Positions 6,071 to 25,641 of a stretch of 54,139 nucleotides of DNA are shown piece by piece; the first letter of the stretch is position 1, and every line of letters starts with the position of its first letter. The notes beneath the pieces are model-generated. The model searched no databases and had not been told where the DNA came from. It was given only the letters and a program-made list of their open reading frames with translations. A program made the translations under genes and the position numbers. This DNA is from an uncultured Clostridium sp. (GTDB lineage Bacteria > Bacillota > Clostridia > TANB77 > CAG-508), in contig CAMMMI010000001.1 in NCBI GenBank assembly GCA_946497905.1, positions 1-54,139 of the forward strand, written 5' to 3'.

Positions 6071-6147
<77 letters not shown>

Positions 6148-6258: not shown

Positions 6259-6334
6259 CGAGGCGTAGCGCAGTTGGTAGCGCGCGTGGTTTGGGACCAT
6301 GAGGTCGCAGGTTCGATCCCTGTCGCCTCGACCA
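6259..6334 (+). tRNA. tRNA-Pro (anticodon TGG); its 3' end is the integration site of the IME
   Basis: CGAGGCG acceptor, GCGC D-stem, CGTGG/CCATG anticodon stem, loop TTTGGGA, GCAGG-TTCGATC-CCTGT T-arm, CGCCTCG-A-CCA. Confidence 0.9.
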
Positions 6335-6393
6335 GAAAAAGAGACTTTTTACAAGTCTCTTAATTTGTTTTTTGGCTATTTTAAGCCTTTTTT
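6326..6393 (+). repeat. attL (tRNA-Pro 3' end + hairpin allele A + shared 20-mer)
   Basis: CCTCGACCAGAAAAAG ... AGAGAC-N9-GTCTCT ... GGCTATTTTAAGCCTTTTTT. Confidence 0.75.
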
Positions 6394-6437
6394 CTTTTCT
6401 CAAACTTTTTCAAAATTTCTCTATATTTGTGTTACTG

Positions 6438-6488
6438 CATTCAAAATTACATTCAGATTTCTACAATTGAATGTAATAATTGCATTCA
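6438..6488. promoter_or_regulatory. Candidate integrase arm-type sites, P' arm (4 x CATTCA)
   Basis: CATTCA at 6438, 6450 and 6483 (direct) and TGAATG at 6468 (inverted), all in a WGCATTCAAA / TACATTCAG context. Confidence 0.45.
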
Positions 6489-6528
6489 AATTTTATAAGC
6501 ATATAAATATTTTTTAATTATTTAAAAT

Positions 6529-6553
6529 TAGGAAAGTACAATGTACCTTCCTA
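6529..6553 (-). terminator. Terminator of the leftward IME operon
   Basis: On the minus strand: aggaaggtac-att-gtactttcct followed by a T-rich tract, 27 nt after the ABC gene stop. Confidence 0.55.
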
Positions 6554-6579
6554 ATCGAAAAAACAGTAGATTAAATGTG

Positions 6580-8403
6580 TTAAATCTCTTTTACTAAATT
6601 AAATTCTCCAGCCTTTGCAAACTGTAAGTTTCTAAATGTGTACTCATTAGCAAGTTTACTTTTGAATCCATCAATGTTTTGGTGAGTTGAAATAATTACA
6701 ATTCGTTTTTTATCCGAGTTAGCATACCTCACAATGTACTCCAAAATTTTTTCTGCATCAGCAGAATCAGATTCCGTCTTATCATCAAGACCTGATGTAC
6801 ATTCATCCAAAACAATAACATCAATTTCATCATCTAACCAGTATAGCATCTTTGCAAGAATAAGTCTCTGTTTCTGTCCATTTGAAAGCGACTGCTCAAA
6901 TTGTTTTTCTTTCATCCATTTCCATACATCAAAGCAATTAGATTTTATTTCACACCACAAATGGAGATTCTCTAAAATCTTTTGCATTTTTGCAAGATCT
7001 GGATTCTCATTACAACAGAACAGCTCTTCAAAAATACTCAAACTACCAAACTTCAACTTTTCATCATAGAACAAAAATCGTGATGTCGAGGGTATCTCTG
7101 TACTCTTTTCCAATCTGATTCTTTCGGTTAACATCTTCATAAATGTCGATTTACCACTACCAGATGGTCCGTACAGAATAACAACCTCTCCGTTATTAAT
7201 GTGTATCTGCTTTTTTGAAATTAATGTGAAAGGTTTATCGTTCTCGGATTCCTCCAAATACTGAATCGAGAATGGATTTATTCTTATATTGTCAACAATT
7301 TTAGGTATAGAAACCTTTGCAGATTCATTATGATACACATCTAAAATTAATGACATATCCTTTTCTTCTTTTTCCAGTATGATTAACCTTTCATTGTGAT
7401 TGTTCAAAGTTTCAGCAATTCTGCTAATCTGTCCTAATGCTGTTTCAACAATCAGAAGTGTTGCAGTAATTTCTGTTATAGTAGCTAAATTGATACTACT
7501 CCACTCGACTCCTAACAGATAGAATATTATAATTCCATACTGACTAAGTGCTTCCATTATTGTTACAAATAATCTCGACAAATTCATCTTCTTGTGGAAC
7601 TTTGTAACATTCTCATTGCTCGCAATAACAGTCTTTTGAAATTTATTGATTCTCATATCCAAGTCATCTTTGACAATTACAGGAACACGAAGTAAATCAT
7701 TTACTATCAAAGACTGTTCGTTGTTATACTCTCTGTGTTTCTTATAATATGCTTCTCTATTCAAACTAATATATGCTGAACTAAAGAAAGAAATAAGCAC
7801 AAATATGAAAATCAGAGGAATAAAAACAACTTGTGAAATAGATGTGTTGGTTATTATGGCTACAGCTAGCATAATTATTACACTAATCATTTCAAATACA
7901 TCAAATGTATGTTGAATTTTCTGTCGCCACAGATTTTGCAAATAGTTCTTAATAGTATTTAACACCGATTCATTGCTCATTACTTTATACAATTTATTTG
8001 ATGTGTTATACTTCAAAACCTTATTTGCTGTCTTGCCGATGATTTGACTACCTCTGAATACAATTTCATCCTCAAAAATGAGTTCAAATTTCTTGTTTTC
8101 AGAGCTTTCAAAAAGATAAAATGCTTCCCTTACAACTTGCTGCCCACGATATAACATAAATAATATGATTCCAAGCAAAATCAACCTGTACTCAATCATC
8201 ATGTTTGTCGCTTTAAGCATAAATGCAAAAACAAGGGCGATTACGGTCATTCCCAGATTCATGAAACCCACTTTAAATCCCATCCGCTTTACACTTTCAG
8301 GAATAATGAGCATCTCATCTGATAAACCATATGGCTTGAAGAACTTAATAATGAGATTTATCACCTCCCGAATTAAATTTTTCAATTTTTCCTGTCCTTT
8401 CAT
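6580..8403 (-). CDS. ABC half-transporter-like protein (N-terminal multi-TM domain fused to an ABC ATPase); IME cargo
   Basis: Several hydrophobic helices in about aa 40-330. Walker A GPSGSGKST, signature LSNGQKQR, Walker B VIVLDECTSGLD, H-loop STHQ. Confidence 0.8.
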   Translation of the reverse strand: MKGQEKLKNLIREVINLIIKFFKPYGLSDEMLIIPESVKRMGFKVGFMNLGMTVIALVFAFMLKATNMMIEYRLILLGIILFMLYRGQQVVREAFYLFESSENKKFELIFEDEIVFRGSQIIGKTANKVLKYNTSNKLYKVMSNESVLNTIKNYLQNLWRQKIQHTFDVFEMISVIIMLAVAIITNTSISQVVFIPLIFIFVLISFFSSAYISLNREAYYKKHREYNNEQSLIVNDLLRVPVIVKDDLDMRINKFQKTVIASNENVTKFHKKMNLSRLFVTIMEALSQYGIIIFYLLGVEWSSINLATITEITATLLIVETALGQISRIAETLNNHNERLIILEKEEKDMSLILDVYHNESAKVSIPKIVDNIRINPFSIQYLEESENDKPFTLISKKQIHINNGEVVILYGPSGSGKSTFMKMLTERIRLEKSTEIPSTSRFLFYDEKLKFGSLSIFEELFCCNENPDLAKMQKILENLHLWCEIKSNCFDVWKWMKEKQFEQSLSNGQKQRLILAKMLYWLDDEIDVIVLDECTSGLDDKTESDSADAEKILEYIVRYANSDKKRIVIISTHQNIDGFKSKLANEYTFRNLQFAKAGEFNLVKEI

Positions 8404-8554
8404 GTGCTTTTCCTCCTTAATTATATGTGATAGAAAAAATTTTTTACAAAGGTATGTACCTCATACTTTTATTATAGCATATTTACATAATATTTTCTAT
8501 AATTATCCAAAAAATACAACAATTGGGTTCATCTCAAAGTCATTATATTTTTAT

Positions 8555-9790
8555 TTACATTTCTTCCTCTTCATCAAACCAATCAAAACCACTAGAATTA
8601 GCTTTTTTAATTGCATATTCTTTCATAGCTTGTTTTGATAAAGTTCTATATCTTCTAATTCTTATTTTAGGTCTATGATTTATTTGTGAGTTAGAAACCA
8701 TATTGCTGATAGCAATAATCCCACCAAGAATGTTATTAACCCTGTTTTCCATTTTATTTTGGAAATCTTGCTTTTCTGTTCCTCTTCCGTTTTTTTCAAT
8801 TCTTGTTTCAAGTTGTAAAATTGATTTTTCACTTCTTGTGCCACTAATTTTTGCATTTCCTTGTTCATCTGTATATTGTCCTTTAATAATCTTTCTAGTG
8901 TATCTTGTACTTTCTTTTTCATAATTGTTATATCTTCTACTATTGCTTGTTCCATTTGATATAAATCCTTTATTATCTCTGGCTCTATTAGATAATAATC
9001 CATCTTTACTATTGATGGAACTACTTGATTTTCTTGTATTATTTGATTGTTCTTTTTCAATTCTTCTAAATTCATTTTCCATTGCTCCTTTTGAATATTT
9101 TTTATCATATAATTTATTATCTCTACACTTATATCCTTCAGGCGTTGTATATGTAATGTATTTTCTTGTATCTGTCCAATTAACTTGATAACCTAACTTA
9201 TTCATTAATTTTATAAATTGCTCTTTGTTACTACTTTCTGCCAGTGATAAATCAATTGCATTTATTAACTTAAATTTCCAACTCTTACCCTGTTCAGCAA
9301 CTCTATATTCATTTCTTTTTATGTATTGTGTATTTTCTTTTTTAGGTATAACTGAAGCTCTTATCTCTAAGCACAACTTGTCTGAATAATCTTTTAAATC
9401 TTGTAAATCCTTTTTACTCATTTGAATTTTATATCCATTTTCAAATGAAACTGAATTTACAACTAAATGATTATGCAAATGTTTTTTATCAATATGTGTT
9501 GCAACTAATACCTGGTATCCATTGAATTTTTCTGCTAATCTAATACCGGTATTATGAACTTGTTCTGCAGATAAATTATCTTTTGGGGCAAATGATTGAA
9601 TAATATGAATATACTGTCTGCCATTATTCTTGTTATATAATTCTTTTGTATATAACATTTCTTCTAAACTACTTTCAGCTAAACAATCTTTTCCTGTTAT
9701 CAAATTAGCATTTGTTTTCTTGTCTTGTGTAACATAGTTTATAATTGTTTTTAAGTTTGCTTTTGAACTAATTGCTTCAATAATTGCCAT
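8555..9790 (-). CDS. Relaxase / mobilization nuclease (MobA/VirD2-type, MOBQ-like)
   Basis: N-terminal relaxase motifs: HIIQSFAP, and a His cluster HIDKKHLHNHLVVNSV. The start overlaps the mobC 3' end by 40 nt. Low-complexity C-terminal half with an acidic tail DWFDEEEEM. Confidence 0.85.
   Translation of the reverse strand: MAIIEAISSKANLKTIINYVTQDKKTNANLITGKDCLAESSLEEMLYTKELYNKNNGRQYIHIIQSFAPKDNLSAEQVHNTGIRLAEKFNGYQVLVATHIDKKHLHNHLVVNSVSFENGYKIQMSKKDLQDLKDYSDKLCLEIRASVIPKKENTQYIKRNEYRVAEQGKSWKFKLINAIDLSLAESSNKEQFIKLMNKLGYQVNWTDTRKYITYTTPEGYKCRDNKLYDKKYSKGAMENEFRRIEKEQSNNTRKSSSSINSKDGLLSNRARDNKGFISNGTSNSRRYNNYEKESTRYTRKIIKGQYTDEQGNAKISGTRSEKSILQLETRIEKNGRGTEKQDFQNKMENRVNNILGGIIAISNMVSNSQINHRPKIRIRRYRTLSKQAMKEYAIKKANSSGFDWFDEEEEM
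8680..9075 (-). CDS. Nested MobB-like ORF in an alternative frame inside the relaxase gene (coiled-coil + C-terminal TM helix)
   Basis: 142-aa ORF, of which 131 aa follow the second Met, preceded by AAAGGAG-9 nt-ATG. Non-degenerate, coiled-coil-like sequence ending in TGLITFLVGLLLSAIWFL. Confidence 0.45.
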   Translation of the reverse strand: MNLEELKKNNQIIQENQVVPSIVKMDYYLIEPEIIKDLYQMEQAIVEDITIMKKKVQDTLERLLKDNIQMNKEMQKLVAQEVKNQFYNLKQELKKTEEEQKSKISKIKWKTGLITFLVGLLLSAIWFLTHK

Positions 9791-9978
9791 ATATTATTCA
9801 CTTCCATTCGCAGTTCTTTCAAGTCAACTACTGTAATTATTTTTTCATTTGCAAGTCTTGTTAATTGATTAATATTATTTCCTATTCTTCGAAGCTCACT
9901 ATCTACTTTATCTAGTCCTTTTACTATAATAATTTTATCTTTTAAACACGAACTTACAATAAATTTTGTAATTGTCAT
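9751..9978 (-). CDS. mobC: MobC-family relaxosome accessory protein (the annotated ORF lacks its RHH N-terminus; see finding)
   Basis: LRRIGNNINQLTRLAN matches the MobC NxNQ motif. There is no SD before ATG 9978, while a strong GAGGAGG SD precedes an out-of-frame ATG at 10058. Confidence 0.75.
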   Translation of the reverse strand: MTITKFIVSSCLKDKIIIVKGLDKVDSELRRIGNNINQLTRLANEKIITVVDLKELRMEVNNIWQLLKQLVQKQT

Positions 9979-10114
9979 ATTACATTTCTTTGCTTTTGAT
10001 TCAATTATGCTTTTTCTTTTTCAGTTAATCGTATATTTATTTTCTTATCTTTGGGCATTCTATTCCTCCTCGTTTTCCCTAAAACAAATTAAAGGGGTTT
10101 GGGTTCTCCCAAGT

Positions 10115-10163
10115 TTGCAAGCTCTATTTGTAGTACTTGTACTTACAAATAGGAAGCTTGCAA
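10115..10163. promoter_or_regulatory. Candidate oriT inverted repeat
   Basis: TTGCAAGCTCTATTTGTA - 11 nt - TACAAATAGGAAGCTTGCAA, located between int and mobC. Confidence 0.45.
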
Positions 10164-10180
10164 TACTATATATTTGGTAT

Positions 10181-11359
10181 TTAATTACTGTTATTCACAA
10201 AATTTAATTGGTTATTATTTAAATAAGTATTTACCTTTTCAAGTTCATTTTCTTTAAATTTATTAAACACAGATGTGTATGTATTTAAAGTTACAGTTAC
10301 ATCTTTGTGTCCCATTAATCTTTGCAAAACGACTGCTGTCATTCCTGCTTCAATACATCTTGTTCCATAAGTATGTCTTAAACAATGGGTACTAATATTT
10401 TTTGAATCTACATTTAATTCTTCTTTGAAAATTCTTTTTAGTTCTTTATTAATTGCAGATGTTCTTATATAACTATCATTATTTGTAAATATTAAATTGT
10501 GTAAATTTTCATTTGTATATTTTAATTGTTCCTCAAAAATTGGAACTAAAAAATCTGGTATAGGTAAAGTTCTATTACCTGAATACGTTTTTGTCTTATT
10601 TCCTAAAATAATGGCAAATTCTTTGTCATTTGTTAGTGTTCTCTTAACATATAAAAGTTTATTTTCTAAATCAATATTTTCTTTGCTTAATGCAAGTACT
10701 TCGCCTATTCTTAATCCCATATACATTTGTAGTAAAAATATATTTTTATATGGTTCGTTTTCTATTGAAACTTTATTCAAATATTGTGTAAATTCTTTTT
10801 GCACATTGATATTTAATGCTTCAACCACTTTTGTTTGTTTATTACTTTTAGGTTTTATAACTTCATACATTGGGTTATATGAAATGTATTTTTTTATTTC
10901 TGCTCTACGATATGCTTGTACAAATTGTTCATAAATTTTCTTGATATACGAATCACTTAAATCTTTAATAGAATTTAAAAATTCTTGAATATCATCTTTG
11001 GTTATATCCTGTATTTTCATATTTCCAATATTGCTATTTTTAATTTTATTGATAGTCCATTTTAATCTAGCATATTGACCACCTGAAATTGTATTAGATG
11101 CCAATTTTTCTTCTCTTATATCTTCCATAATTTTTACTAATTTAATTCCATTTTTTTCTATATACATGTCATTATTCATTTTATATTTAATCTCATTTAA
11201 TTTATTTATGACCTCTTTTTGAGTCTTTCCATATACTGATTTTCTAATGACTTTTCCATCTACAGATGTTCCATATATATATTGACCAATCCATCTTTTA
11301 TTTTTCTTATCTTCAAATATTGTGCCTTCGCCATTTCCTCTTCTTCTTTTTCTCTTCAT
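10181..11359 (-). CDS. int: Tyrosine recombinase / site-specific integrase
   Basis: N-terminal arm-binding-like GNGEGTIFEDKKNKRWIGQ. Catalytic region LRIGEVLAL ... HCLRHTYGTR ... LMGHKDVTVTLNTYTSV (R-H-R-Y pattern). Confidence 0.9.
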   Translation of the reverse strand: MKRKRRRGNGEGTIFEDKKNKRWIGQYIYGTSVDGKVIRKSVYGKTQKEVINKLNEIKYKMNNDMYIEKNGIKLVKIMEDIREEKLASNTISGGQYARLKWTINKIKNSNIGNMKIQDITKDDIQEFLNSIKDLSDSYIKKIYEQFVQAYRRAEIKKYISYNPMYEVIKPKSNKQTKVVEALNINVQKEFTQYLNKVSIENEPYKNIFLLQMYMGLRIGEVLALSKENIDLENKLLYVKRTLTNDKEFAIILGNKTKTYSGNRTLPIPDFLVPIFEEQLKYTNENLHNLIFTNNDSYIRTSAINKELKRIFKEELNVDSKNISTHCLRHTYGTRCIEAGMTAVVLQRLMGHKDVTVTLNTYTSVFNKFKENELEKVNTYLNNNQLNFVNNSN

Positions 11360-11371
11360 AATTTTGACCTC

Positions 11372-12175
11372 CTATTTTGCAAGTTCATTAACCAAACTTG
11401 AAATATAATATTCTATTATGTTTTCGATATTTTTATTTTTTAAGATATTACCAAATACTTTTTCTAGTATAGGTAAAGTTACTTTTTCCAATAATTCTCC
11501 CTGTTTATTATCGTATAACCTTTTTACTGCCAATTGATATAGTTTTATTTGAGTTAGTACACTTTTTGGTAAGTACTCTGAGTTTTCAAAATATATTTTC
11601 TTTTGTTTAAAAATTACATTATATTTTGCTGTTTCTTTTTGAACTAAATTTGTTTTATTTAATTTTAAATTAATTAAATCTAATCCATCATTCAATCCAT
11701 TATTTTCTATATCTTCATCTATCTCTATATCTAACTCTTTATCTATATCTATCTCTTGTGGACTATTTGGTAGACATTGTCCACTTAATAATTTCTGCTT
11801 TTCTCTTTGTTCTCTTTTTTGTTTTGCCCAACCAGTTTCACTACCTACCATATTTTCAAATCCAGCTATTTTTAAACAAATTCCATCATCTGTATAAATT
11901 AAATTTAGTTTTTTAAATAGTTCCATAGCAACTATAACAGTATCTTTACTAAAATATTTAGTATCTCTTACTATTTTTTCTGGATCATAGGGAATAATCA
12001 TTTCTCCAACTCGTGATGCTAATTCTCCATTATTATTAGCAGTTTGTAGGCATAGCATTTGATACAAAACGATATACTGACAACCATCTTTTTGTGATAA
12101 TAAGAAATCTATTTCGGCTAAATTAAAGAAATCAGTTTTTAATTTTATCCAATAATATCTTTTTGTTTTTTCCAT
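11372..12175 (-). CDS. Phage-replisome-organizer N-terminal-domain protein (putative IME replication initiator)
   Basis: RYYWIKLKTDFFNLAEIDFLLSQKDGCQYIVLYQMLCLQTANNNGEL matches the Phage_rep_org_N pattern. Acidic repeat linker EIDIDKELDIEIDEDIE. Confidence 0.7.
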   Translation of the reverse strand: MEKTKRYYWIKLKTDFFNLAEIDFLLSQKDGCQYIVLYQMLCLQTANNNGELASRVGEMIIPYDPEKIVRDTKYFSKDTVIVAMELFKKLNLIYTDDGICLKIAGFENMVGSETGWAKQKREQREKQKLLSGQCLPNSPQEIDIDKELDIEIDEDIENNGLNDGLDLINLKLNKTNLVQKETAKYNVIFKQKKIYFENSEYLPKSVLTQIKLYQLAVKRLYDNKQGELLEKVTLPILEKVFGNILKNKNIENIIEYYISSLVNELAK

Positions 12176-12334
12176 AATTTACTCACTTTCCAGTATTTCT
12201 ACTTAATTTTCTATTGTTAAAAATAAGGAAAAATGATATACTATTTATATAAAGATTGCGAATATCTTTATGTGGCATTTGTGCAAAAGTCTGCTCGACA
12301 AAGTGTACTTTTGTATAAATGCTTTTTAAATTTT

Positions 12335-12580
12335 TCATATAACATCAATCCTTTTTTCCATCTTCCACAGAATATAAGCAATTTTTTGTATTTTTCTTGT
12401 TTTGCCAATATTCACAGATGGAAAATCTGCACGATTAAATATTTCGTTTGTTTTGTTTTCTCCCATATACAAATCTTTTGCTACATCTTTTACAGTTAGC
12501 ATTTTAAATGGGTCATCTAAGCTCTTTATAGCTTGTTTTACTAATTCTTTCTTAAGTTCTTCACTAAAATTTTCATTCAT
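12335..12580 (-). CDS. Excisionase-family / MerR-like HTH DNA-binding protein
   Basis: LTVKDVAKDLYMGENKTNEIFNRADFPSVNIGKTRKIQKIAYILW resembles HTH_17 excisionase-type proteins. First gene of the leftward operon. Confidence 0.65.
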   Translation of the reverse strand: MNENFSEELKKELVKQAIKSLDDPFKMLTVKDVAKDLYMGENKTNEIFNRADFPSVNIGKTRKIQKIAYILWKMEKRIDVI

Positions 12581-12608
12581 AATTTTGTCCTCCTTTGAAA
12601 TTTCTATA

Positions 12609-12839
12609 ATCCATTTTGGATACTTAATAAGTAAAAAAATAAATCTTATTCATATTTTTATTTTTATAGCATACCTCCTTTCAAATTTATCTGTATCCGT
12701 TTTGGATATTTATATAATAATCCAAAATGGATATATTGTCAATACCTTTTTCAAAATTTTTTAAACTTTCTAAAACTTTTATATAAAAAATATTTAATTT
12801 TCAACGATTATTGACTTTCCAAAATGGATATGATAAAAT
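12609..12839. promoter_or_regulatory. Divergent promoter/operator switch region of the IME
   Basis: Leftward promoter TTGACA(12742-12737)-17-TATTAT(12719-14). Rightward promoter TTGACT(12811-16)-17-TAAAAT(12834-39). Four ATCCAWWWWGGATA-type palindromes at 12609, 12695, 12720 and 12817; the last two fill the promoter spacers. Confidence 0.65.
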
Positions 12840-12869
12840 TTAAACATAAATTGAGAAGGAGAAAAAATT

Positions 12870-13619: not shown

Positions 13620-13635
13620 GAAGGAGTAAATCTTA

Positions 13636-15312: not shown

Positions 15313-15345
15313 ATATTTAAAATTTTCTAATTTTAAAAAATGATT

Positions 15346-15526
15346 GGCCGAAATTCAAAAAAATCCGGCCGAATTCTAAAAATATTCGGCCGAATTCCGG
15401 ACAAAAATCAGCCGAAATTCAAAAAAATCCGGCCGAATTCTAAAAATATTCGGCCGAATTCCGGGCGAATATCGGCCAAAATTCAAAAAAGTCCGGCTGA
15501 ATTCTAAAAATATTCGGCCGAATTCT
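15346..15526. repeat. GC-rich iteron array: 3 x 64-bp units = 9 x (C)GGCCGAA(A)TTC sites
   Basis: Site starts at 15346, 15367, 15388, 15410, 15431, 15452, 15474, 15495 and 15516, giving spacings of 21,21,22,21,21,22,21,21. Confidence 0.8.
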
Positions 15527-15606
15527 AAGCAGAAATTAATAAATTTAAAATTACAAATTTTGTAAAATCATAAATAAGCTTATGATATATTTTTCAATAT
15601 CCACAA

Positions 15607-16112: not shown

Positions 16113-16152
16113 AATTTTATAAGCATATAAATATTTTTTAATTATTTAAAAT

Positions 16153-16177: not shown

Positions 16178-16203
16178 ATCGAAAAAACAGTAGATTAAAT
16201 GTG

Positions 16204-18027: not shown

Positions 18028-18178
18028 GTGCTTTTCCTCCTTAATTATATGTGATAGAAAAAATTTTTTACAAAGGTATGTACCTCATACTTTTATTATA
18101 GCATATTTACATAATATTTTCTATAATTATCCAAAAAATACAACAATTGGGTTCATCTCAAAGTCATTATATTTTTAT

Positions 18179-19414
18179 TTACATTTCTTCCTCTTCATCA
18201 AACCAATCAAAACCACTAGAATTAGCTTTTTTAATTGCATATTCTTTCATAGCTTGTTTTGATAAAGTTCTATATCTTCTAATTCTTATTTTAGGTCTAT
18301 GATTTATTTGTGAGTTAGAAACCATATTGCTGATAGCAATAATCCCACCAAGAATGTTATTAACCCTGTTTTCCATTTTATTTTGGAAATCTTGCTTTTC
18401 TGTTCCTCTTCCGTTTTTTTCAATTCTTGTTTCAAGTTGTAAAATTGATTTTTCACTTCTTGTGCCACTAATTTTTGCATTTCCTTGTTCATCTGTATAT
18501 TGTCCTTTAATAATCTTTCTAGTGTATCTTGTACTTTCTTTTTCATAATTGTTATATCTTCTACTATTGCTTGTTCCATTTGATATAAATCCTTTATTAT
18601 CTCTGGCTCTATTAGATAATAATCCATCTTTACTATTGATGGAACTACTTGATTTTCTTGTATTATTTGATTGTTCTTTTTCAATTCTTCTAAATTCATT
18701 TTCCATTGCTCCTTTTGAATATTTTTTATCATATAATTTATTATCTCTACACTTATATCCTTCAGGCGTTGTATATGTAATGTATTTTCTTGTATCTGTC
18801 CAATTAACTTGATAACCTAACTTATTCATTAATTTTATAAATTGCTCTTTGTTACTACTTTCTGCCAGTGATAAATCAATTGCATTTATTAACTTAAATT
18901 TCCAACTCTTACCCTGTTCAGCAACTCTATATTCATTTCTTTTTATGTATTGTGTATTTTCTTTTTTAGGTATAACTGAAGCTCTTATCTCTAAGCACAA
19001 CTTGTCTGAATAATCTTTTAAATCTTGTAAATCCTTTTTACTCATTTGAATTTTATATCCATTTTCAAATGAAACTGAATTTACAACTAAATGATTATGC
19101 AAATGTTTTTTATCAATATGTGTTGCAACTAATACCTGGTATCCATTGAATTTTTCTGCTAATCTAATACCGGTATTATGAACTTGTTCTGCAGATAAAT
19201 TATCTTTTGGGGCAAATGATTGAATAATATGAATATACTGTCTGCCATTATTCTTGTTATATAATTCTTTTGTATATAACATTTCTTCTAAACTACTTTC
19301 AGCTAAACAATCTTTTCCTGTTATCAAATTAGCATTTGTTTTCTTGTCTTGTGTAACATAGTTTATAATTGTTTTTAAGTTTGCTTTTGAACTAATTGCT
19401 TCAATAATTGCCAT
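18179..19414 (-). CDS. MOBQ-like relaxase, copy 2
   Basis: Translation identical to 8555-9790. Confidence 0.85.
   Translation of the reverse strand: MAIIEAISSKANLKTIINYVTQDKKTNANLITGKDCLAESSLEEMLYTKELYNKNNGRQYIHIIQSFAPKDNLSAEQVHNTGIRLAEKFNGYQVLVATHIDKKHLHNHLVVNSVSFENGYKIQMSKKDLQDLKDYSDKLCLEIRASVIPKKENTQYIKRNEYRVAEQGKSWKFKLINAIDLSLAESSNKEQFIKLMNKLGYQVNWTDTRKYITYTTPEGYKCRDNKLYDKKYSKGAMENEFRRIEKEQSNNTRKSSSSINSKDGLLSNRARDNKGFISNGTSNSRRYNNYEKESTRYTRKIIKGQYTDEQGNAKISGTRSEKSILQLETRIEKNGRGTEKQDFQNKMENRVNNILGGIIAISNMVSNSQINHRPKIRIRRYRTLSKQAMKEYAIKKANSSGFDWFDEEEEM
18304..18699 (-). CDS. Nested MobB-like ORF, copy 2
   Basis: Identical to 8680-9075 (+9624). Confidence 0.45.
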   Translation of the reverse strand: MNLEELKKNNQIIQENQVVPSIVKMDYYLIEPEIIKDLYQMEQAIVEDITIMKKKVQDTLERLLKDNIQMNKEMQKLVAQEVKNQFYNLKQELKKTEEEQKSKISKIKWKTGLITFLVGLLLSAIWFLTHK

Positions 19415-19602
19415 ATATTATTCACTTCCATTCGCAGTTCTTTCAAGTCAACTACTGTAATTATTTTTTCATTTGCAAGTCTTGTTAATTGATTAATATT
19501 ATTTCCTATTCTTCGAAGCTCACTATCTACTTTATCTAGTCCTTTTACTATAATAATTTTATCTTTTAAACACGAACTTACAATAAATTTTGTAATTGTC
19601 AT
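19375..19602 (-). CDS. mobC: MobC-family protein, copy 2
   Basis: Translation identical to 9751-9978. Confidence 0.75.
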   Translation of the reverse strand: MTITKFIVSSCLKDKIIIVKGLDKVDSELRRIGNNINQLTRLANEKIITVVDLKELRMEVNNIWQLLKQLVQKQT

Positions 19603-19738
19603 ATTACATTTCTTTGCTTTTGATTCAATTATGCTTTTTCTTTTTCAGTTAATCGTATATTTATTTTCTTATCTTTGGGCATTCTATTCCTCCTCGTTTT
19701 CCCTAAAACAAATTAAAGGGGTTTGGGTTCTCCCAAGT

Positions 19739-19787
19739 TTGCAAGCTCTATTTGTAGTACTTGTACTTACAAATAGGAAGCTTGCAA
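19739..19787. promoter_or_regulatory. Candidate oriT inverted repeat, copy 2
   Basis: Identical to 10115-10163 (+9624). Confidence 0.45.
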
Positions 19788-19804
19788 TACTATATATTTG
19801 GTAT

Positions 19805-20983
19805 TTAATTACTGTTATTCACAAAATTTAATTGGTTATTATTTAAATAAGTATTTACCTTTTCAAGTTCATTTTCTTTAAATTTATTAAACACAGATGT
19901 GTATGTATTTAAAGTTACAGTTACATCTTTGTGTCCCATTAATCTTTGCAAAACGACTGCTGTCATTCCTGCTTCAATACATCTTGTTCCATAAGTATGT
20001 CTTAAACAATGGGTACTAATATTTTTTGAATCTACATTTAATTCTTCTTTGAAAATTCTTTTTAGTTCTTTATTAATTGCAGATGTTCTTATATAACTAT
20101 CATTATTTGTAAATATTAAATTGTGTAAATTTTCATTTGTATATTTTAATTGTTCCTCAAAAATTGGAACTAAAAAATCTGGTATAGGTAAAGTTCTATT
20201 ACCTGAATACGTTTTTGTCTTATTTCCTAAAATAATGGCAAATTCTTTGTCATTTGTTAGTGTTCTCTTAACATATAAAAGTTTATTTTCTAAATCAATA
20301 TTTTCTTTGCTTAATGCAAGTACTTCGCCTATTCTTAATCCCATATACATTTGTAGTAAAAATATATTTTTATATGGTTCGTTTTCTATTGAAACTTTAT
20401 TCAAATATTGTGTAAATTCTTTTTGCACATTGATATTTAATGCTTCAACCACTTTTGTTTGTTTATTACTTTTAGGTTTTATAACTTCATACATTGGGTT
20501 ATATGAAATGTATTTTTTTATTTCTGCTCTACGATATGCTTGTACAAATTGTTCATAAATTTTCTTGATATACGAATCACTTAAATCTTTAATAGAATTT
20601 AAAAATTCTTGAATATCATCTTTGGTTATATCCTGTATTTTCATATTTCCAATATTGCTATTTTTAATTTTATTGATAGTCCATTTTAATCTAGCATATT
20701 GACCACCTGAAATTGTATTAGATGCCAATTTTTCTTCTCTTATATCTTCCATAATTTTTACTAATTTAATTCCATTTTTTTCTATATACATGTCATTATT
20801 CATTTTATATTTAATCTCATTTAATTTATTTATGACCTCTTTTTGAGTCTTTCCATATACTGATTTTCTAATGACTTTTCCATCTACAGATGTTCCATAT
20901 ATATATTGACCAATCCATCTTTTATTTTTCTTATCTTCAAATATTGTGCCTTCGCCATTTCCTCTTCTTCTTTTTCTCTTCAT
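19805..20983 (-). CDS. int: Tyrosine integrase, copy 2
   Basis: Translation identical to 10181-11359. Confidence 0.9.
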   Translation of the reverse strand: MKRKRRRGNGEGTIFEDKKNKRWIGQYIYGTSVDGKVIRKSVYGKTQKEVINKLNEIKYKMNNDMYIEKNGIKLVKIMEDIREEKLASNTISGGQYARLKWTINKIKNSNIGNMKIQDITKDDIQEFLNSIKDLSDSYIKKIYEQFVQAYRRAEIKKYISYNPMYEVIKPKSNKQTKVVEALNINVQKEFTQYLNKVSIENEPYKNIFLLQMYMGLRIGEVLALSKENIDLENKLLYVKRTLTNDKEFAIILGNKTKTYSGNRTLPIPDFLVPIFEEQLKYTNENLHNLIFTNNDSYIRTSAINKELKRIFKEELNVDSKNISTHCLRHTYGTRCIEAGMTAVVLQRLMGHKDVTVTLNTYTSVFNKFKENELEKVNTYLNNNQLNFVNNSN

Positions 20984-20995
20984 AATTTTGACCTC

Positions 20996-21799
20996 CTATT
21001 TTGCAAGTTCATTAACCAAACTTGAAATATAATATTCTATTATGTTTTCGATATTTTTATTTTTTAAGATATTACCAAATACTTTTTCTAGTATAGGTAA
21101 AGTTACTTTTTCCAATAATTCTCCCTGTTTATTATCGTATAACCTTTTTACTGCCAATTGATATAGTTTTATTTGAGTTAGTACACTTTTTGGTAAGTAC
21201 TCTGAGTTTTCAAAATATATTTTCTTTTGTTTAAAAATTACATTATATTTTGCTGTTTCTTTTTGAACTAAATTTGTTTTATTTAATTTTAAATTAATTA
21301 AATCTAATCCATCATTCAATCCATTATTTTCTATATCTTCATCTATCTCTATATCTAACTCTTTATCTATATCTATCTCTTGTGGACTATTTGGTAGACA
21401 TTGTCCACTTAATAATTTCTGCTTTTCTCTTTGTTCTCTTTTTTGTTTTGCCCAACCAGTTTCACTACCTACCATATTTTCAAATCCAGCTATTTTTAAA
21501 CAAATTCCATCATCTGTATAAATTAAATTTAGTTTTTTAAATAGTTCCATAGCAACTATAACAGTATCTTTACTAAAATATTTAGTATCTCTTACTATTT
21601 TTTCTGGATCATAGGGAATAATCATTTCTCCAACTCGTGATGCTAATTCTCCATTATTATTAGCAGTTTGTAGGCATAGCATTTGATACAAAACGATATA
21701 CTGACAACCATCTTTTTGTGATAATAAGAAATCTATTTCGGCTAAATTAAAGAAATCAGTTTTTAATTTTATCCAATAATATCTTTTTGTTTTTTCCAT
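20996..21799 (-). CDS. Replisome-organizer-domain protein, copy 2
   Basis: Translation identical to 11372-12175. Confidence 0.7.
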   Translation of the reverse strand: MEKTKRYYWIKLKTDFFNLAEIDFLLSQKDGCQYIVLYQMLCLQTANNNGELASRVGEMIIPYDPEKIVRDTKYFSKDTVIVAMELFKKLNLIYTDDGICLKIAGFENMVGSETGWAKQKREQREKQKLLSGQCLPNSPQEIDIDKELDIEIDEDIENNGLNDGLDLINLKLNKTNLVQKETAKYNVIFKQKKIYFENSEYLPKSVLTQIKLYQLAVKRLYDNKQGELLEKVTLPILEKVFGNILKNKNIENIIEYYISSLVNELAK

Positions 21800-21958
21800 A
21801 ATTTACTCACTTTCCAGTATTTCTACTTAATTTTCTATTGTTAAAAATAAGGAAAAATGATATACTATTTATATAAAGATTGCGAATATCTTTATGTGGC
21901 ATTTGTGCAAAAGTCTGCTCGACAAAGTGTACTTTTGTATAAATGCTTTTTAAATTTT

Positions 21959-22204
21959 TCATATAACATCAATCCTTTTTTCCATCTTCCACAGAATATA
22001 AGCAATTTTTTGTATTTTTCTTGTTTTGCCAATATTCACAGATGGAAAATCTGCACGATTAAATATTTCGTTTGTTTTGTTTTCTCCCATATACAAATCT
22101 TTTGCTACATCTTTTACAGTTAGCATTTTAAATGGGTCATCTAAGCTCTTTATAGCTTGTTTTACTAATTCTTTCTTAAGTTCTTCACTAAAATTTTCAT
22201 TCAT
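21959..22204 (-). CDS. Excisionase-family HTH protein, copy 2
   Basis: Translation identical to 12335-12580. Confidence 0.65.
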   Translation of the reverse strand: MNENFSEELKKELVKQAIKSLDDPFKMLTVKDVAKDLYMGENKTNEIFNRADFPSVNIGKTRKIQKIAYILWKMEKRIDVI

Positions 22205-22232
22205 AATTTTGTCCTCCTTTGAAATTTCTATA

Positions 22233-22463
22233 ATCCATTTTGGATACTTAATAAGTAAAAAAATAAATCTTATTCATATTTTTATTTTTATAGCATACCT
22301 CCTTTCAAATTTATCTGTATCCGTTTTGGATATTTATATAATAATCCAAAATGGATATATTGTCAATACCTTTTTCAAAATTTTTTAAACTTTCTAAAAC
22401 TTTTATATAAAAAATATTTAATTTTCAACGATTATTGACTTTCCAAAATGGATATGATAAAAT
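22233..22463. promoter_or_regulatory. Divergent promoter/operator switch, copy 2
   Basis: Identical to 12609-12839 (+9624). Confidence 0.65.
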
Positions 22464-22493
22464 TTAAACATAAATTGAGAAGGAGAAAAAATT

Positions 22494-23243
22494 ATGACAA
22501 ATGGCGAAAGAATAAAGTATTTAAGAGAAAAAAATGGATTTACTCAAAAAGATATTGCTACAAGATTAGGAGTAGAACCTGCAGCAATATCAAAATATGA
22601 ATTAGATATGAGAGAGCCAAATATAGAAGCAATAAAAAAACTAGCTACAATTTTTAATGTTTCAATAGATTATTTACTTGGAAGAACACCAGATGTTTTT
22701 GTAGATGAAACAAATAGAGATACACTTGATATATCTGCTATTAAAGACAAATATAACTTTACAAAAAAGAGAATGGATAAAGTAAAAGAAATCTATAAAA
22801 ATGATACTACACTAAGCACAGCAATAAACGAATTATGTTGTGGTGTAGGAAAAACTACTTTTGGACAAACTATAACAAATACAAATATTTCAATGCTAGA
22901 AATAGAAAGCATGTTTAATGATTTTGAAAACAGCAAAGATCCTAAACCACAAATTATAATGAAAGTTAAAAATTTAGAAAATAGTATTATAATTGTTGAG
23001 ATTGATTCTTTTGATGATGAAGAAATGCCACTTGATGCAACTGATAGAATTGCTTTATATACTACAAAATTATCACAAAAATATAATGTGCTTGGTTTAG
23101 TAATGACAATTGATAAAGATGAAAATTGTAAAATTATAGATGCTATATATCAAAAAAATAAAGATACTTATTATACTCAATTACATTTGCCTAAAACAGT
23201 ATTAACTGCTGGAGAGTATATTGATATAATGAGTAGATTATAG
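22494..23243 (+). CDS. XRE-family regulator with unknown C-terminal domain, copy 2
   Basis: Translation identical to 12870-13619. Confidence 0.8.
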   Translation: MTNGERIKYLREKNGFTQKDIATRLGVEPAAISKYELDMREPNIEAIKKLATIFNVSIDYLLGRTPDVFVDETNRDTLDISAIKDKYNFTKKRMDKVKEIYKNDTTLSTAINELCCGVGKTTFGQTITNTNISMLEIESMFNDFENSKDPKPQIIMKVKNLENSIIIVEIDSFDDEEMPLDATDRIALYTTKLSQKYNVLGLVMTIDKDENCKIIDAIYQKNKDTYYTQLHLPKTVLTAGEYIDIMSRL

Positions 23244-23259
23244 GAAGGAGTAAATCTTA

Positions 23260-24936
23260 ATGGAAGATTCAGAACTTAAACAAATATTATTTTCATTATT
23301 AAAAAATGATGAAAATGAGTGTATAGAATATAAAGAAGCAAATAATAGTTTTGATTTTGAAAAACTCGGAAAATATTTTTCTGCATTGAGTAATGCTGCT
23401 AACTTGGTTGGAAAGCAATATTCATGGTTAATCTTTGGAATTAAAGATAAAACTCACGAGTTTGTTAATACTAAATATAGAAACAATGGAAATTTGAATA
23501 AGTTAAAAAAAGAAATTACAAAAGGAACTAACGATGGAATTACTTTTTTGGATATTTTTGAATTATTTGTAGAAGATAATAAAAGAGTAATAATGTTTAA
23601 AATACCAGCAGCTATGGGAATTCCCACAACATGGAGAGGATTTGCTTATGATAGAAATGATGAGGATTTAGTCCCTTTAAATCAAATGAAATCTGATCAA
23701 ATTAAGTCAACAATGAATTTCGATTGGTCAAGACAGATTATAGAAAGTTTGACAGTAGATGATTTAGACAAAGAAGCCATTTTAAAAGCAAGAGAACAAT
23801 TTAAAAAGAAAAATGAAGATAAAGAAATTGCTAAAGAAGTGGATAATATGGATGATATTACATTTCTAAATAAAGCGAAGGTTTTATTAAATGGTAAAGT
23901 GACTCGTACAGCTTTACTATTACTTGGAAAAGAAGAAAATAGTTATTTGTTTGAAGATTTTATTCCGCAAATAACGTGGAAATTACAAGAGAATGGAGAA
24001 ATTTTAGATTATGAACACTTTACAATTCCATTTTTAGTAAATGTTGAAAAAGCAAAAAATAAAATTAGAAATTTAAGATATAGATATATGGTTAATGAAA
24101 TAACATTATTTCCCAACGAAGTGGATCAATATGATAATTATACTTTAAGAGAGTTATTAAACAATGCAATCGCTCATCAAGATTACAGAAAACATGGTAG
24201 AATAAATATATTAGAAATGAAAGAAAAATTAATTTTTATAAATGAAGGAAGTTTTATTCCTCAAAATGTTGACAAATTTTTACTAGATGAAAGTTATGTT
24301 CCTCCATATTATAGAAATCCGTTTTTAGCAAATGCTATGGTTAATTTAAATATGATTGATACTGCTGGAAGTGGCATAAGAAGAGTATTTAATAATCAAA
24401 AGCAAAAATTCTTTCCTATGCCAGACTATGATTTATCAGTAGAGGGAAGAGTAAAAGTAACTTTGTATGGAAAAATATTAGATGAAAAATATACAAAAAT
24501 GCTTTTTGAAAAAACTGATTTAGATATTGGTATTGTAATGCTTTTAGATAGAGTTCAAAAAGGAATACATATAGCAAAGCAGGAGTCTGATTTATTAAAA
24601 AAAGAAAAATTAGTAGAAGGAAGATATCCAAACTTATATATTTCTAAAGAAATTTCAGAAATAACAGATGAAAAAGCAAAATATATAAAAAATCGTGGAT
24701 TAAGTAATGATATGTATAAACAAATGATAGTAGAATTGATAAAGACATATGGTAAAGCAACAAGAAATGAAATAAATGATTTGTTACTTGATAAAATGCC
24801 AGAATTCTTATCTGAAGATAAGAAAAAAAGAAGGATTAAATATTTATTAATTGAATGTTTGCAAAATAAAGAGAAAAAAATAAAAAATATTGGAAGTCGT
24901 ACAAATTCTATATGGGTTTTAAATAAAGATGATTAA
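23260..24936 (+). CDS. AlbA_2 / HATPase_c_4 protein, copy 2
   Basis: Translation identical to 13636-15312. Confidence 0.7.
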   Translation: MEDSELKQILFSLLKNDENECIEYKEANNSFDFEKLGKYFSALSNAANLVGKQYSWLIFGIKDKTHEFVNTKYRNNGNLNKLKKEITKGTNDGITFLDIFELFVEDNKRVIMFKIPAAMGIPTTWRGFAYDRNDEDLVPLNQMKSDQIKSTMNFDWSRQIIESLTVDDLDKEAILKAREQFKKKNEDKEIAKEVDNMDDITFLNKAKVLLNGKVTRTALLLLGKEENSYLFEDFIPQITWKLQENGEILDYEHFTIPFLVNVEKAKNKIRNLRYRYMVNEITLFPNEVDQYDNYTLRELLNNAIAHQDYRKHGRINILEMKEKLIFINEGSFIPQNVDKFLLDESYVPPYYRNPFLANAMVNLNMIDTAGSGIRRVFNNQKQKFFPMPDYDLSVEGRVKVTLYGKILDEKYTKMLFEKTDLDIGIVMLLDRVQKGIHIAKQESDLLKKEKLVEGRYPNLYISKEISEITDEKAKYIKNRGLSNDMYKQMIVELIKTYGKATRNEINDLLLDKMPEFLSEDKKKRRIKYLLIECLQNKEKKIKNIGSRTNSIWVLNKDD

Positions 24937-24969
24937 ATATTTAAAATTTTCTAATTTTAAAAAATGATT

Positions 24970-25150
24970 GGCCGAAATTCAAAAAAATCCGGCCGAATTC
25001 TAAAAATATTCGGCCGAATTCCGGACAAAAATCAGCCGAAATTCAAAAAAATCCGGCCGAATTCTAAAAATATTCGGCCGAATTCCGGGCGAATATCGGC
25101 CAAAATTCAAAAAAGTCCGGCTGAATTCTAAAAATATTCGGCCGAATTCT
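24970..25150. repeat. GC-rich iteron array, copy 2
   Basis: Identical to 15346-15526 (+9624). Confidence 0.8.
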
Positions 25151-25230
25151 AAGCAGAAATTAATAAATTTAAAATTACAAATTTTGTAAAATCATAAATA
25201 AGCTTATGATATATTTTTCAATATCCACAA

Positions 25231-25422
25231 TTAATTATTTTTAGTAAGTATTTCTTCTTCATATCCATCATCATATACCCAATGTATGTATTTAAAATCT
25301 CCACCAATTCTTGTATATTCATTTCCACCATCAATTGAACATGCCCCACATTTACATTTTTTATAATCGTGAACACTTAAAGATTCAATTATATCATTAC
25401 ATTTTAAGCATCTAATTTTCAT
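25231..25422 (-). CDS. Small zinc-ribbon-like protein, copy 2
   Basis: Translation identical to 15607-15798. Confidence 0.6.
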   Translation of the reverse strand: MKIRCLKCNDIIESLSVHDYKKCKCGACSIDGGNEYTRIGGDFKYIHWVYDDGYEEEILTKNN

Positions 25423-25493
25423 AATTTTTCCACCTCTTATAGCTTTTCTTTAAGACAATTATACAAACATTTAAAAAATTTTTCAATAAAATT

Positions 25494-25520
25494 CATTCAA
25501 CTGCATTCAAACTACATTCA
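25494..25520 (+). promoter_or_regulatory. Arm-type sites, P arm, copy 2
   Basis: Identical to 15870-15896 (+9624). Confidence 0.45.
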
Positions 25521-25573
25521 AAAAATGTCGAATTGCTAGAAAATAGGTAATTCTCAAAAGTAAATTCTCCTCA

Positions 25574-25641
25574 CCTCGACCAGAAAAAGGAGCTTTTTAC
25601 AAGCTCCTTAAATTGTTTTTAGGCTATTTTAAGCCTTTTTT
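25574..25641 (+). repeat. attR (hairpin allele B; sequence leaves the repeat unit at 25642)
   Basis: Identical to 15950-16017. The first mismatch to the unit is at 25642 (a versus c). Confidence 0.75.

Follow-up and report, generated by a model that had tools for sequence, protein, structure and literature searches.

The 9,624-bp unit at a tRNA-Pro gene of an uncultured gut Clostridia genome fits an integrative mobilizable element (IME) that has been duplicated head to tail, and the hybrid joint between its two copies points to homologous recombination with the leftover of an older island, or to an effect of assembly, rather than to a second site-specific integration. The window analyzed here is an entire contig of 54,139 bp (NCBI/ENA), and the two-copy array is known from this assembled contig alone.

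The duplicated unit

Offset comparison across the window found positions 6374-16017 to equal 15998-25641 exactly over 9,644 bp, with a period of 9,624 bp and no mismatch or indel. Each ORF and intergenic stretch of the unit recurs at +9624, and the exact identity confirms the preliminary description, in which the ORFs between 6580 and 15798 were seen to repeat at this offset together with intergenic stretches. When phased at the tRNA core, copy 1 (6326-15949, + strand) and copy 2 (15950-25573, + strand) differ by eight changes within 32 bp of a hairpin region (15966-15997 in copy 2) and by none across the remaining 9,592 bp.

Gene content of the element

The ORFs of the unit were annotated with Pfam, NCBIfam and PHROGs and compared with at least 24 related loci that have the same backbone, 14 of them directly at tRNA-Pro(tgg). 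The backbone of the family is composed of relaxase, MobC, integrase, replisome organizer, a small HTH protein and a repressor, with variable cargo at both ends. The tyrosine integrase (10181-11359, - strand; copy 2, 19805-20983) matches Phage_integrase PF00589 (E 3e-24) and the phrog_1 integrase (E 3e-68), and is followed by a replisome organizer/DnaD-like protein (11372-12175, - strand; copy 2, 20996-21799) and by an 81-aa conserved protein that is a candidate excisionase/RDF (12335-12580, - strand; copy 2, 21959-22204). The gene for this last protein stays linked to int even where the integrase of relatives is only 46% identical; its earlier description as a "Xis-like" HTH protein has this linkage and weak PHROG HTH matches (E 1e-3 to 2e-4) behind it, with no Pfam, NCBIfam or PDB sequence match and a single-sequence AlphaFold2 model of low confidence (pLDDT 51). 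A divergent control region with four to five ATCCATTTTGGATA-type palindromes, which are candidate operators (12581-12869), precedes the 249-aa Cro/CI-type HTH regulator of the conserved backbone (12870-13619, + strand; copy 2, 22494-23243).

The cargo includes a 607-aa ABC half-transporter with membrane domain and ATPase (6580-8403, - strand; copy 2, 16204-18027) and a 558-aa HATPase_c_4 protein (13636-15312, + strand; copy 2, 23260-24936), the latter found among the relatives in L007 and L016 only. The 2-kb ABC module (6523-8524) is present in many other contexts, and a metagenome scan with the ABC protein for the element elsewhere returned only this cargo module in other backbones. The PADLOC matches of the cargo were generic (ABC ATPase, HTH), and no defense system was deduced from them. 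Toward the right end, three iteron-like 64-bp repeats with the palindrome ATTCGGCCGAAT (15347-15538; copy 2, 24971-25162), composed of about nine 21-bp subrepeats and of putative function, are followed by the gene for a 63-aa DUF7695 zinc-ribbon protein (15607-15798, - strand; copy 2, 25231-25422).

The relaxase (8555-9790, - strand; copy 2, 18179-19414) carries an HxDxxHxHxH motif and matches PF03432 (E 9e-34). It had been described as MOBQ-type, but MOB-suite assigns its best plasmid homologue, pBOT3502, to MOBP, and its NCBIfam matches, both below cut-off, are to the SAG1250 family and the TraI/MobA(P) family. Small mobilizable MOBP plasmids of Clostridium botulinum, such as pBOT3502 (NC_009496), are the closest typed mobC-relaxase relatives, with 41-46% identity and the same gene order, although they have no integrase, an intact mobC and no DNA-level similarity to the element. 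In the window, mobC (9751-10058, - strand; copy 2, 19375-19682) is split into an N-terminal fragment (10058-10005) and a C-terminal ORF (9978-9751) by the loss of 1 nt from an A run, which is A5 at 10011-10015 versus A6 in the relatives, where the gene is intact and encodes 102 aa. The frameshift is found in both copies and in L078, an independent assembly that is 99.2% identical without gaps, and a homopolymer read error was rejected because the run length is the same there. The nested inverted repeat that separates mobC from the stop codon of int (10115-10163) may serve as the oriT hairpin, as the int terminator or as both.

Neither T4SS, coupling-protein (T4CP) nor capsid genes were found among all ORFs of the 9.6-kb unit. 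Signs of a prophage or satellite were likewise absent, with no capsid, terminase or packaging ORF, no DNA match among 50,697 phage records and, in an IMG/VR scan with the integrase, no relative. The unit thus has its own recombinase, direct repeats at a tRNA 3' end and a relaxase, and lacks a T4SS and coupling protein, so that its first classification as an IME rather than an ICE or prophage, made from the integrase, relaxase, MobC, replisome organizer and Xis-like HTH protein, still stands; the intact MobC of the relatives is what it does not share, owing to the 1-nt deletion.

Integration site and crossover

The integration target is tRNA-Pro(UGG) (6259-6334, + strand; ARAGORN), which is intact despite the insertion and adjoins tRNA-Arg(ACG) (6071-6147, - strand; ARAGORN), a tRNA pairing that recurs at many related loci. 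CCTCGACCAG is found at 6326, within the tRNA-Pro 3' end, and at 15950 and 25574, in agreement with the first reading that the unit starts inside the tRNA. A core-containing identity block, CCTCGACCAGAAAAAG (6326-6341, + strand, at attL), is located at the same three positions, and a 20-bp block, GGCTATTTTAAGCCTTTTTT, containing a small hairpin and a T run, at 6374, 15998 and 25622 (6374-6393, + strand; 15998-16017; 25622-25641); for either block, 0.04-0.16 matches are expected by chance in shuffled sequence.

The preliminary description regarded a 68-bp segment starting at the core as att-like. In at least 15 relatives, the repeat that stands at both ends is only (TC[AG])CCTCGACCA, approximately 10 bp of the tRNA 3' end, and the remaining ~58 bp of the segment, together with ~63 bp beyond it, are the element's own left end, as roughly 20 relatives of the element in other gut MAGs show. 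At this left end, hairpin, 20-bp block and the next ~60 bp are conserved across different hosts, and unrelated chromosome follows attR. The 20-bp block was also considered as the true integrase core and was rejected, being absent at attR of the relatives. Position 67 of the tRNA is retained by the left partner in L005, L008, L024 and the window, and position 70 travels with the right partner in L018, where C70 of the attL tRNA is mismatched to A3. Comparison of these sequences maps the putative family crossover between tRNA positions 67 and 70, which would place the canonical crossover at ~6325-6328 in the window, and in the model proposed below the family integrase would cut in the tRNA end and not inside GGCTATTTTAAGCC.

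Junction sequences and relic

The 68-bp copies at 15950 and 25574 are identical, but the copy at 6326, previously taken to be the same, differs from them at eight clustered positions: 6342-6344 (AGA vs GAG), 6356-6358 (TCT vs CTC), 6364 (T vs A) and 6373 (T vs A). Six of the eight are compensatory differences in the 9-bp stem of the left-end hairpin (6339-6361, + strand, AGA/TCT version), and both versions fold the same way, which argues for two natural alleles rather than sequencing errors. The AGA/TCT/T/T haplotype, comprising the hairpin with 6364 and 6373, is present only at the tRNA-side junction. Both hairpin types serve as native left ends within the family, and L007 and L021, though 98% identical as elements, are of different type, which shows that this patch is subject to exchange. 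To the right of the 20-bp block, 47 bp of the element are identical to L003, with one mismatch to L002, L004 and L007 (all GAG-type) and two to the AGA-type L006 and L021; L002-L004 are the closest relatives when integrase and backbone are compared (96%).

The middle junction (15950-16017, + strand) runs from the element right end through the core, a GAG-type hairpin and the 20-bp block into the element left end. It matches attR (25574) across all 68 bp and is a hybrid, with attR contributing the left part and attL the right, and on these sequences the putative recombination switch behind it can lie only within 6374-6393. For a crossover at tRNA positions 67-70, an AGA-type hairpin in the middle would be predicted whether a copy integrated a second time, a dimer integrated or attL recombined with attR, and this canonical prediction is missed at eight of eight diagnostic positions. 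The earlier view of the joint as an attP reconstituted from this attL and attR does not agree with these sequences, though the layout of attP (right end, core, left end) is kept, and the integrase could probably still remove one copy or both. The idea that one copy might be excised while the other is kept is compatible with this layout, but the accompanying proposal of transfer without loss is weakened by the frameshifted mobC.

The attR core at 25574-25583 is followed by a ~121-bp relic of another family member's left end (25574-25704 with the core, + strand), which equals the middle junction up to 25641 and is then ~83% identical to ~25704. The left end is conserved as element-own in the relatives, and the sequence at 25584-25704 is thus the relic of an older member of the family; the preliminary description counted a third att copy here and did not recognize it as a relic, and the similarity to the left end runs past 25641. 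A tblastn search with the family proteins beyond 25641 in the window gave no match, with no int or mob genes after the relic, and neither a further copy of the core nor one of the 20-bp block was found downstream within the window, where the relic is without a second att site of its own. Like a CIME-like relic, it keeps element-end sequence (83-100% identical) unaccompanied by integration or transfer genes. A relic-specific 39-mer had no match in a scan of metagenome contigs; L018 and L024 are further family loci with a relic after attR.

A contig from another sample, L033, is 99.9% identical to 25571-27849 and shows 8 nt matching the tRNA-Pro T-arm/acceptor end, then directly the core, the GAG hairpin and the relic; its tRNA position 67 is A, where the window has G. 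L033 looks like a site without the element, judging from this short stretch, and is a candidate for the empty site for which the preliminary description proposed to search related genomes.

Origin of the duplication

The array is best explained by a single canonical integration and a later unequal homologous exchange between two left-end repeats, at what we judge to be slightly short of an even chance. In this model, a single copy would have entered by the canonical integrase crossover at tRNA positions 67-70, at a site where the ~121-bp left-end relic of an earlier family member already lay just downstream of the tRNA. The element would then be bracketed by direct repeats of ~131 bp that are ~85-88% identical, namely its own left end at attL with the AGA hairpin and the relic left end after attR with the GAG hairpin. 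Unequal exchange between sister chromosomes, or alternatively a template switch, would have duplicated the element, with the exchange falling within the longest block that both repeats share perfectly, the 20 bp at 6374-6393. The model predicts AGA at attL, GAG with the 20-bp block and the element left end in the middle, GAG with the 20-bp block and the relic at attR, and copies that are otherwise identical, as observed. With the mobC frameshift in both copies and in L078, a local event is more likely than conjugative re-entry. From the repeat, the junction sequences, the family core and the relic, we infer both the order of events and a part played by host recombination.

Classical duplication and amplification proceeds by unequal exchange between flanking direct repeats, for which IS elements and rrn operons are the usual substrates. 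The array resembles it in the bracketing by direct repeats, the hybrid junction with a single switch and the otherwise identical copies, but the repeats here are homeologous element ends of 131 bp with a 20-bp perfect block, shorter than usual. For RecA-type exchange across 9.6 kb, 20 bp of substrate is short, and the event would be rare unless selected, for example through cargo dose; selection for the ABC cargo as the driver would be a guess. Against the exchange model, the likeness of the left end to L003, L002, L004 and L007 mildly favors GAG as the element's own version. L033, for its part, offers only 8 nt of tRNA-like sequence, with A67.

An assembly artefact is unlikely but a serious contender. 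There would then be one integrated copy, and a junction of GAG hairpin, 20-bp block and element left end, supplied by molecules or co-resident strains, would have made a cycle in the assembly graph whose 9.6-kb edge was walked twice. Path-based assemblers can walk a cycle with one entry and one exit repeatedly on coverage evidence, and the contigs of sister samples bear SPAdes-style names (NODE_..._cov_...), so that perhaps no single read ever crossed the two-copy path. Divergence between the copies is zero, the related loci all occur singly in MAGs built from short reads, and contigs from other samples break exactly at these junctions; look-ups with the flank genes and DUF7695 returned only such short contigs (1-2.3 kb). 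However, the k-mers that define the middle junction must be present in the reads, and a circle excised canonically from a monomer with these attL and attR sequences would carry AGA and not GAG. This contradicts the simple case of one copy plus its own circle, and an artefact would therefore require that circles formed non-canonically or that the population has a second attL allele. Exact-protein matches of the integrase, ABC, HATPase_c_4 and relaxase proteins were found only in the source contig, the plasmid and phage collections gave no DNA match, and a circular form was absent from the public collections searched.

Improbable, though it reproduces all three junctions, is a displaced first integration, in which the native attP would be the middle junction (GAG) and the relic at the tRNA would originally have been AGA. 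The first entry would have crossed over inside the 20-bp block of the relic, by homologous recombination or through a migrated junction, and a second circle would have entered attR canonically. The GAG type of the closest relatives and the 47 bp shared with L003 agree with such a native end, and later canonical excision would leave the tRNA, GAG hairpin and relic as seen in L033. Still, this explanation requires one non-canonical crossover in the same 20 bp, an AGA relic in this strain where the sole other view of the relic (L033) is GAG, and a second arrival or re-integration of an element with a broken mobC.

The preliminary description had proposed a second integration into attL or attR or the integration of a replicated dimer, and although such arrays are documented for the IME SGI1 and other elements (PMC2297512, PMC5704250) and the element has both an integrase and a replisome organizer, this origin, even with later gene conversion of the hairpin, is very improbable because attL and the middle junction should share a hairpin where they instead show eight clustered differences, with the middle equal to attR, and because the added conversion would again need a joint in the 20-bp block.

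Relation to known tandem elements

Tandem IME arrays and accretion beside relics are already known, and the case is fairly ordinary. SGI1 forms arrays of up to six copies (Doublet et al. 2008, PMC2297512), which are stable, form when the element enters by conjugation and are ascribed to site-specific integration (PMC2297512). SGI1 is likewise an IME with a tyrosine integrase, arranged head to tail at a specific site with attP-like junctions between copies, but it resides in Gammaproteobacteria at trmE/thdF, whereas the array here is known from a contig alone, at tRNA-Pro of a gut Clostridia MAG, and has a hybrid middle junction. Accretion beside decayed elements (CIMEs), at tRNA genes and elsewhere, is described for streptococcal IMEs and ICEs (Guedon et al. 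2017, PMC5704250; Coluzzi et al. 2017, PMC5357655), and replisome-organizer genes are common in streptococcal IMEs (PMC5704250; PMC5357655). These are also site-specific elements of Bacillota at gene 3' ends, often in tandem with relics or unrelated elements; the streptococcal accretions join different elements via att sites, in contrast to the duplication of the same element here, beside a relic of only ~121 bp.

If the two copies are real, the array would show, for an uncultured anaerobe of the gut, an integrated IME that naturally gained a copy through host recombination involving a relic and without re-integration, and would bear on changes in cargo dose and on the shuffling of ends among related elements at tRNA hotspots. 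It is possible, if doubtful, that the hybrid junction records an integrase-free route of host recombination in which relics at tRNA hotspots act as portable homology, with the AGA/GAG patch as its family-wide footprint. By this route, an IME with a broken mobilization gene could duplicate, amplify, delete or swap an end without its integrase.

The tRNA-Pro(UGG) family

The element belongs to a large, so far unnamed family at the tRNA-Pro(UGG) 3' end in uncultured gut Clostridia of low G+C content. With more than 1,500 relaxase homologues (1,514 at E<=1e-50), the survey defines a very widespread and seemingly undescribed IME lineage of gut Clostridia. This lineage is often stacked with unrelated tRNA-Pro elements, and a second, unrelated integrase element abuts the left end at 6 of about 25 family loci.

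Exact tandem repeat at tRNA-Pro

Offset self-comparison of the window showed that positions 6374–16017 are identical to 15998–25641, with no mismatches or indels over 9,644 bp at a period of 9,624 bp. All ORFs and intergenic bases of the integrative mobilizable element (IME) therefore recur at +9624, so that what the preliminary description had proposed for its ORFs and sampled intergenic stretches holds for every base. The two copies (6326–15949 and 15950–25573) lie head to tail beside tRNA-Pro(tgg), placed by ARAGORN at 6259–6334 on the plus strand; tRNA-Arg(acg) lies at 6071–6147 on the minus strand. The sequence CCTCGACCAGAAAAAG occurs three times in the window (starts 6326, 15950 and 25574), as does the 20-bp block GGCTATTTTAAGCCTTTTTT (starts 6374, 15998 and 25622), with fewer than 0.2 matches expected by chance for each. 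The tandem repeat as first described is largely confirmed, with one correction: the 68-bp segment reported as three identical copies is the same at 15950 and 25574, but the copy at 6326 has eight differences (6342–6344, 6356–6358, 6364 and 6373). Six of the eight fall in a 9-bp hairpin stem and compensate for one another, and both versions fold alike (−15.1 and −18.1 kcal/mol), so the two versions, termed AGA (at 6326) and GAG, are natural alleles rather than errors. Because strain variants diverge by 0.4–0.8%, yet copies 1 and 2 show no differences over the repeat, the duplication, if real, would be very recent.

Attachment site, crossover and relic

Among relatives, only (TC[AG])CCTCGACCA, the acceptor-stem end of the tRNA, is present at both element ends. 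In different hosts, the conserved left end of the element comprises the hairpin, the 20-bp block and ~60 bp beyond it, and attR is followed by unrelated chromosome. tRNA position 67 covaries with position 6 of the host tRNA and is retained by the left partner (loci L005, L008 and L024, and the window), while position 70 moves with the right partner: in locus L018, the attL tRNA has C70 opposite A3 and attR keeps T70. These markers place the predicted crossover between positions 67 and 70, at about 6325–6328. The L018 tRNA-Pro (locus positions 16382–16457), whose C70/A3 acceptor-stem mismatch served as a marker in this mapping, indicates that its element swapped the tRNA end for a copy acquired in a host with a different tRNA-Pro.

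The segment after attR, 25584–25704, matches the middle junction perfectly as far as 25641 and from there to 25704 is ~83% identical to the element left end. As only the core repeats at both ends in relatives, this segment is the left end of a different family member and, since no family genes were found after it, a relic; L018 and L024 have similar relics after attR. Locus L033, from another sample (ENA ERZ4933522), is 99.9% identical to 25571–27849 and begins with CCCTGTCA, a match to the T-arm/acceptor end of tRNA-Pro, followed directly by the core, the GAG hairpin and the relic. L033 looks like the site without the element, with the caveat that the tRNA match spans only 8 nt and has A at position 67 where the window has G.

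The middle junction is a hybrid

Junction A (6326) reads tRNA, core, AGA hairpin, 20-bp block and element left end; junction B (15950) reads element right end, core, GAG hairpin, 20-bp block and element left end; and junction C (25574) reads element right end, core, GAG hairpin, 20-bp block and relic. The left part of B is thus that of C and its right part that of A, with the switch confined to 6374–6393. Because the crossover falls in the tRNA end, the middle junction should carry an A-type hairpin under each of four canonical routes: another integration, into attL or attR; integration of a circular dimer; integrase-mediated exchange of attL with attR on sister chromosomes; and excision of a circle from one copy. 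The hairpin found there is GAG, contrary to all four as they stand, including the canonical tandem integration of the preliminary description. Whichever detailed model is right, the junction sequences place at least one recombination joint inside the 20-bp block rather than at the integrase core.

Models for the origin of the tandem copies

The model that we prefer, tentatively, is a single canonical integration beside a GAG-type relic followed by unequal homologous exchange. The element left end would have been AGA-type, and the two ~131-bp left-end repeats would then have recombined within their longest identical block, which duplicated the element. This model needs one non-canonical event and reproduces junctions A, B and C as well as L033. 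Unequal exchange between flanking direct repeats classically yields a duplication with a hybrid junction.

An assembly artefact is unlikely, though less so than the other alternatives. In its favour, the window is the entire 54,139-bp contig (NCBI/ENA) and contigs from sister samples are named in SPAdes style, so perhaps no single read crosses the repeat. In the simplest version of this explanation, however, a circle excised from this monomer would carry the AGA rather than the GAG hairpin. All complete relatives (7.8–10.4 kb) are single copies, but these come from short-read MAGs, which cannot hold identical tandem copies. We consider it improbable that integration was displaced, with a GAG-type element left end, an AGA-type relic and junction B as the true attP, copy 1 entering through the 20-bp block and copy 2 canonically into attR. 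The hairpins of the closest relatives are indeed GAG, and to the right of the block 47 bp are identical to locus L003, but the phylogenetic hint is weak because hairpin type differs even between the 98%-identical loci L007 and L021. The canonical model first proposed, patched by a later conversion, is very improbable.

The phenomenon itself is already known, since IME arrays, accretion next to relics and unequal-exchange hybrid junctions have been described before; mildly new are a flanking repeat apparently contributed by a sister-element relic and a junction sequence that appears to speak against the integrase route. SGI1, likewise an IME found in tandem copies, forms documented arrays of up to six (PMC2297512), and frequent tandem location beside decayed elements and accretion through att sites have been reviewed for IMEs (PMC5704250).

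Gene content and the mobC lesion

Genes were named from Pfam, NCBIfam and PHROGs. The minus strand encodes an ABC half-transporter (6580–8403), a relaxase (PF03432; 8555–9790), MobC (a 75-aa ORF; 9751–9978), a tyrosine integrase (10181–11359), a replisome organizer/DnaD-like protein (11372–12175), a small conserved 81-aa protein with weak HTH matches (12335–12580) and a DUF7695 zinc ribbon (15607–15798), and the plus strand encodes a Cro/CI-type regulator (12870–13619) and a HATPase_c_4 protein (13636–15312). These databases revealed no mating-pore, coupling-protein or capsid genes among the unit's genes, no DNA similarity of the element to plasmid or phage records was found, and IMG/VR yielded no relative. 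The predicted gene content, with integrase, relaxase and MobC, therefore supports the original IME label. The review of IMEs also describes tRNA 3' ends as targets and replisome-organizer genes in IMEs of Bacillota (PMC5704250). The MOBQ-type label first given to the relaxase is not supported: the nearest typed homologues are MOBP, from small mobilizable Clostridium botulinum plasmids (41–46% identity); 1,514 relaxase homologues were found in the protein collection at E≤1e-50.

The loss of 1 nt from an A run (A5 at 10011–10015 versus A6 in relatives; GAAAAAGAAAAAGC versus GAAAAAGAAAAAAGC) splits mobC, leaving a short ORF, MPKDKKINIRLTEKEKA* (10058–10005, minus strand), upstream of and in a different frame from the 75-aa ORF. 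Copy 2 has the same split (19629–19682 and 19375–19602), and the relatives' MobC is intact at 102 aa, with the ribbon-helix-helix strand in its N-terminus. Locus L078, an independent assembly (ENA ERZ4933517), covers 7548–10692 at 99.24% identity without gaps and gives the same 75-aa MobC call, which indicates a genuine, inherited frameshift. Mobilization of the element is probably impaired, which fits local duplication better than repeated conjugative entry. Locus L015 (~6800–6811) has a deletion-like truncation of mobC with the relaxase gene almost directly after it, another route to MobC loss in the family.

Three 64-bp repeats at 15347–15538 (24971–25162 in copy 2), comprising about nine 21-bp subrepeats with the G+C-rich palindrome ATTCGGCCGAAT in surrounding DNA of 25% G+C, are iteron-like and could either serve the replisome organizer as an origin or act as arm sites for the integrase. 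Where the 81-aa gene and the HTH regulator diverge (12581–12869), the intergenic DNA holds four to five palindromes of type ATCCATTTTGGATA, which are candidate operators for a repressor switch. A nested perfect inverted repeat, TTGCAAGCT/AGCTTGCAA enclosing CTATTTGTA/TACAAATAG, lies at 10115–10163, between mobC and the stop codon of int, and is a candidate oriT hairpin or terminator.

The element family

Scanning a single genome from each species gave 31 loci, nearly all in gut MAGs labelled uncultured Clostridia or Clostridium. About 24 of them share a backbone of relaxase, MobC, integrase, replisome organizer, 81-aa protein and HTH regulator at 82–96% DNA identity, with variable cargo at both element ends. 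The ABC gene is confined to the window's element among the surveyed loci, the HATPase_c_4 gene is otherwise in L007 and L016 only, and the DUF7695 gene is present in five loci. The 2-kb ABC module (6523–8524) is a cargo cassette that travels, occurring in many other contexts and often directly beside tRNA-Pro (loci L038–L069); in its nearest relatives (L038, L039, L041 and L042) it is preceded by a second ABC half-transporter gene (532 aa), which the window's element lacks.

tRNA-Pro(tgg) lies directly at the left end in 14 family loci, often with tRNA-Arg(acg) near, as in the window. In L003, L006, L014, L017, L022 and L023, the left end instead abuts a second integrase gene, on the opposite strand and 31–38% identical, and L020 holds two family integrases 10 kb apart; element stacking at the tRNA-Pro site is therefore common. 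L075–L076 also show such stacking.

Host chromosome around the element

Both flanks consist of ordinary chromosomal DNA, from a bacterium of ~25% G+C, with cohesin, dockerin and sortase surface proteins on the left and sirtuin, HTH-S24 regulator, AgrB, diaminopimelate dehydrogenase and M18 aminopeptidase genes on the right. The tandem copies lie between a cadherin-like gene at 4750–5997 and the SIR2 gene at 25788–26504. On the plus strand, a signal-peptide ORF (2351–2995) overlaps, in another frame, an ORF with SH3, Big_2 and dockerin domains and no signal peptide (2973–4652); the two may be halves of a single surface-protein gene broken by a frameshift. The regions 1–6000 and 34879–37953 encode cohesin, dockerin, sortase, Big_2 and cadherin-like surface proteins, one of which, a 1,024-aa dockerin/metallo-beta-lactamase-fold protein, adjoins tRNA-Arg(tct) at 34667–34743. 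This gene content points to a cellulosome-like surface system in this lineage of gut Clostridia.
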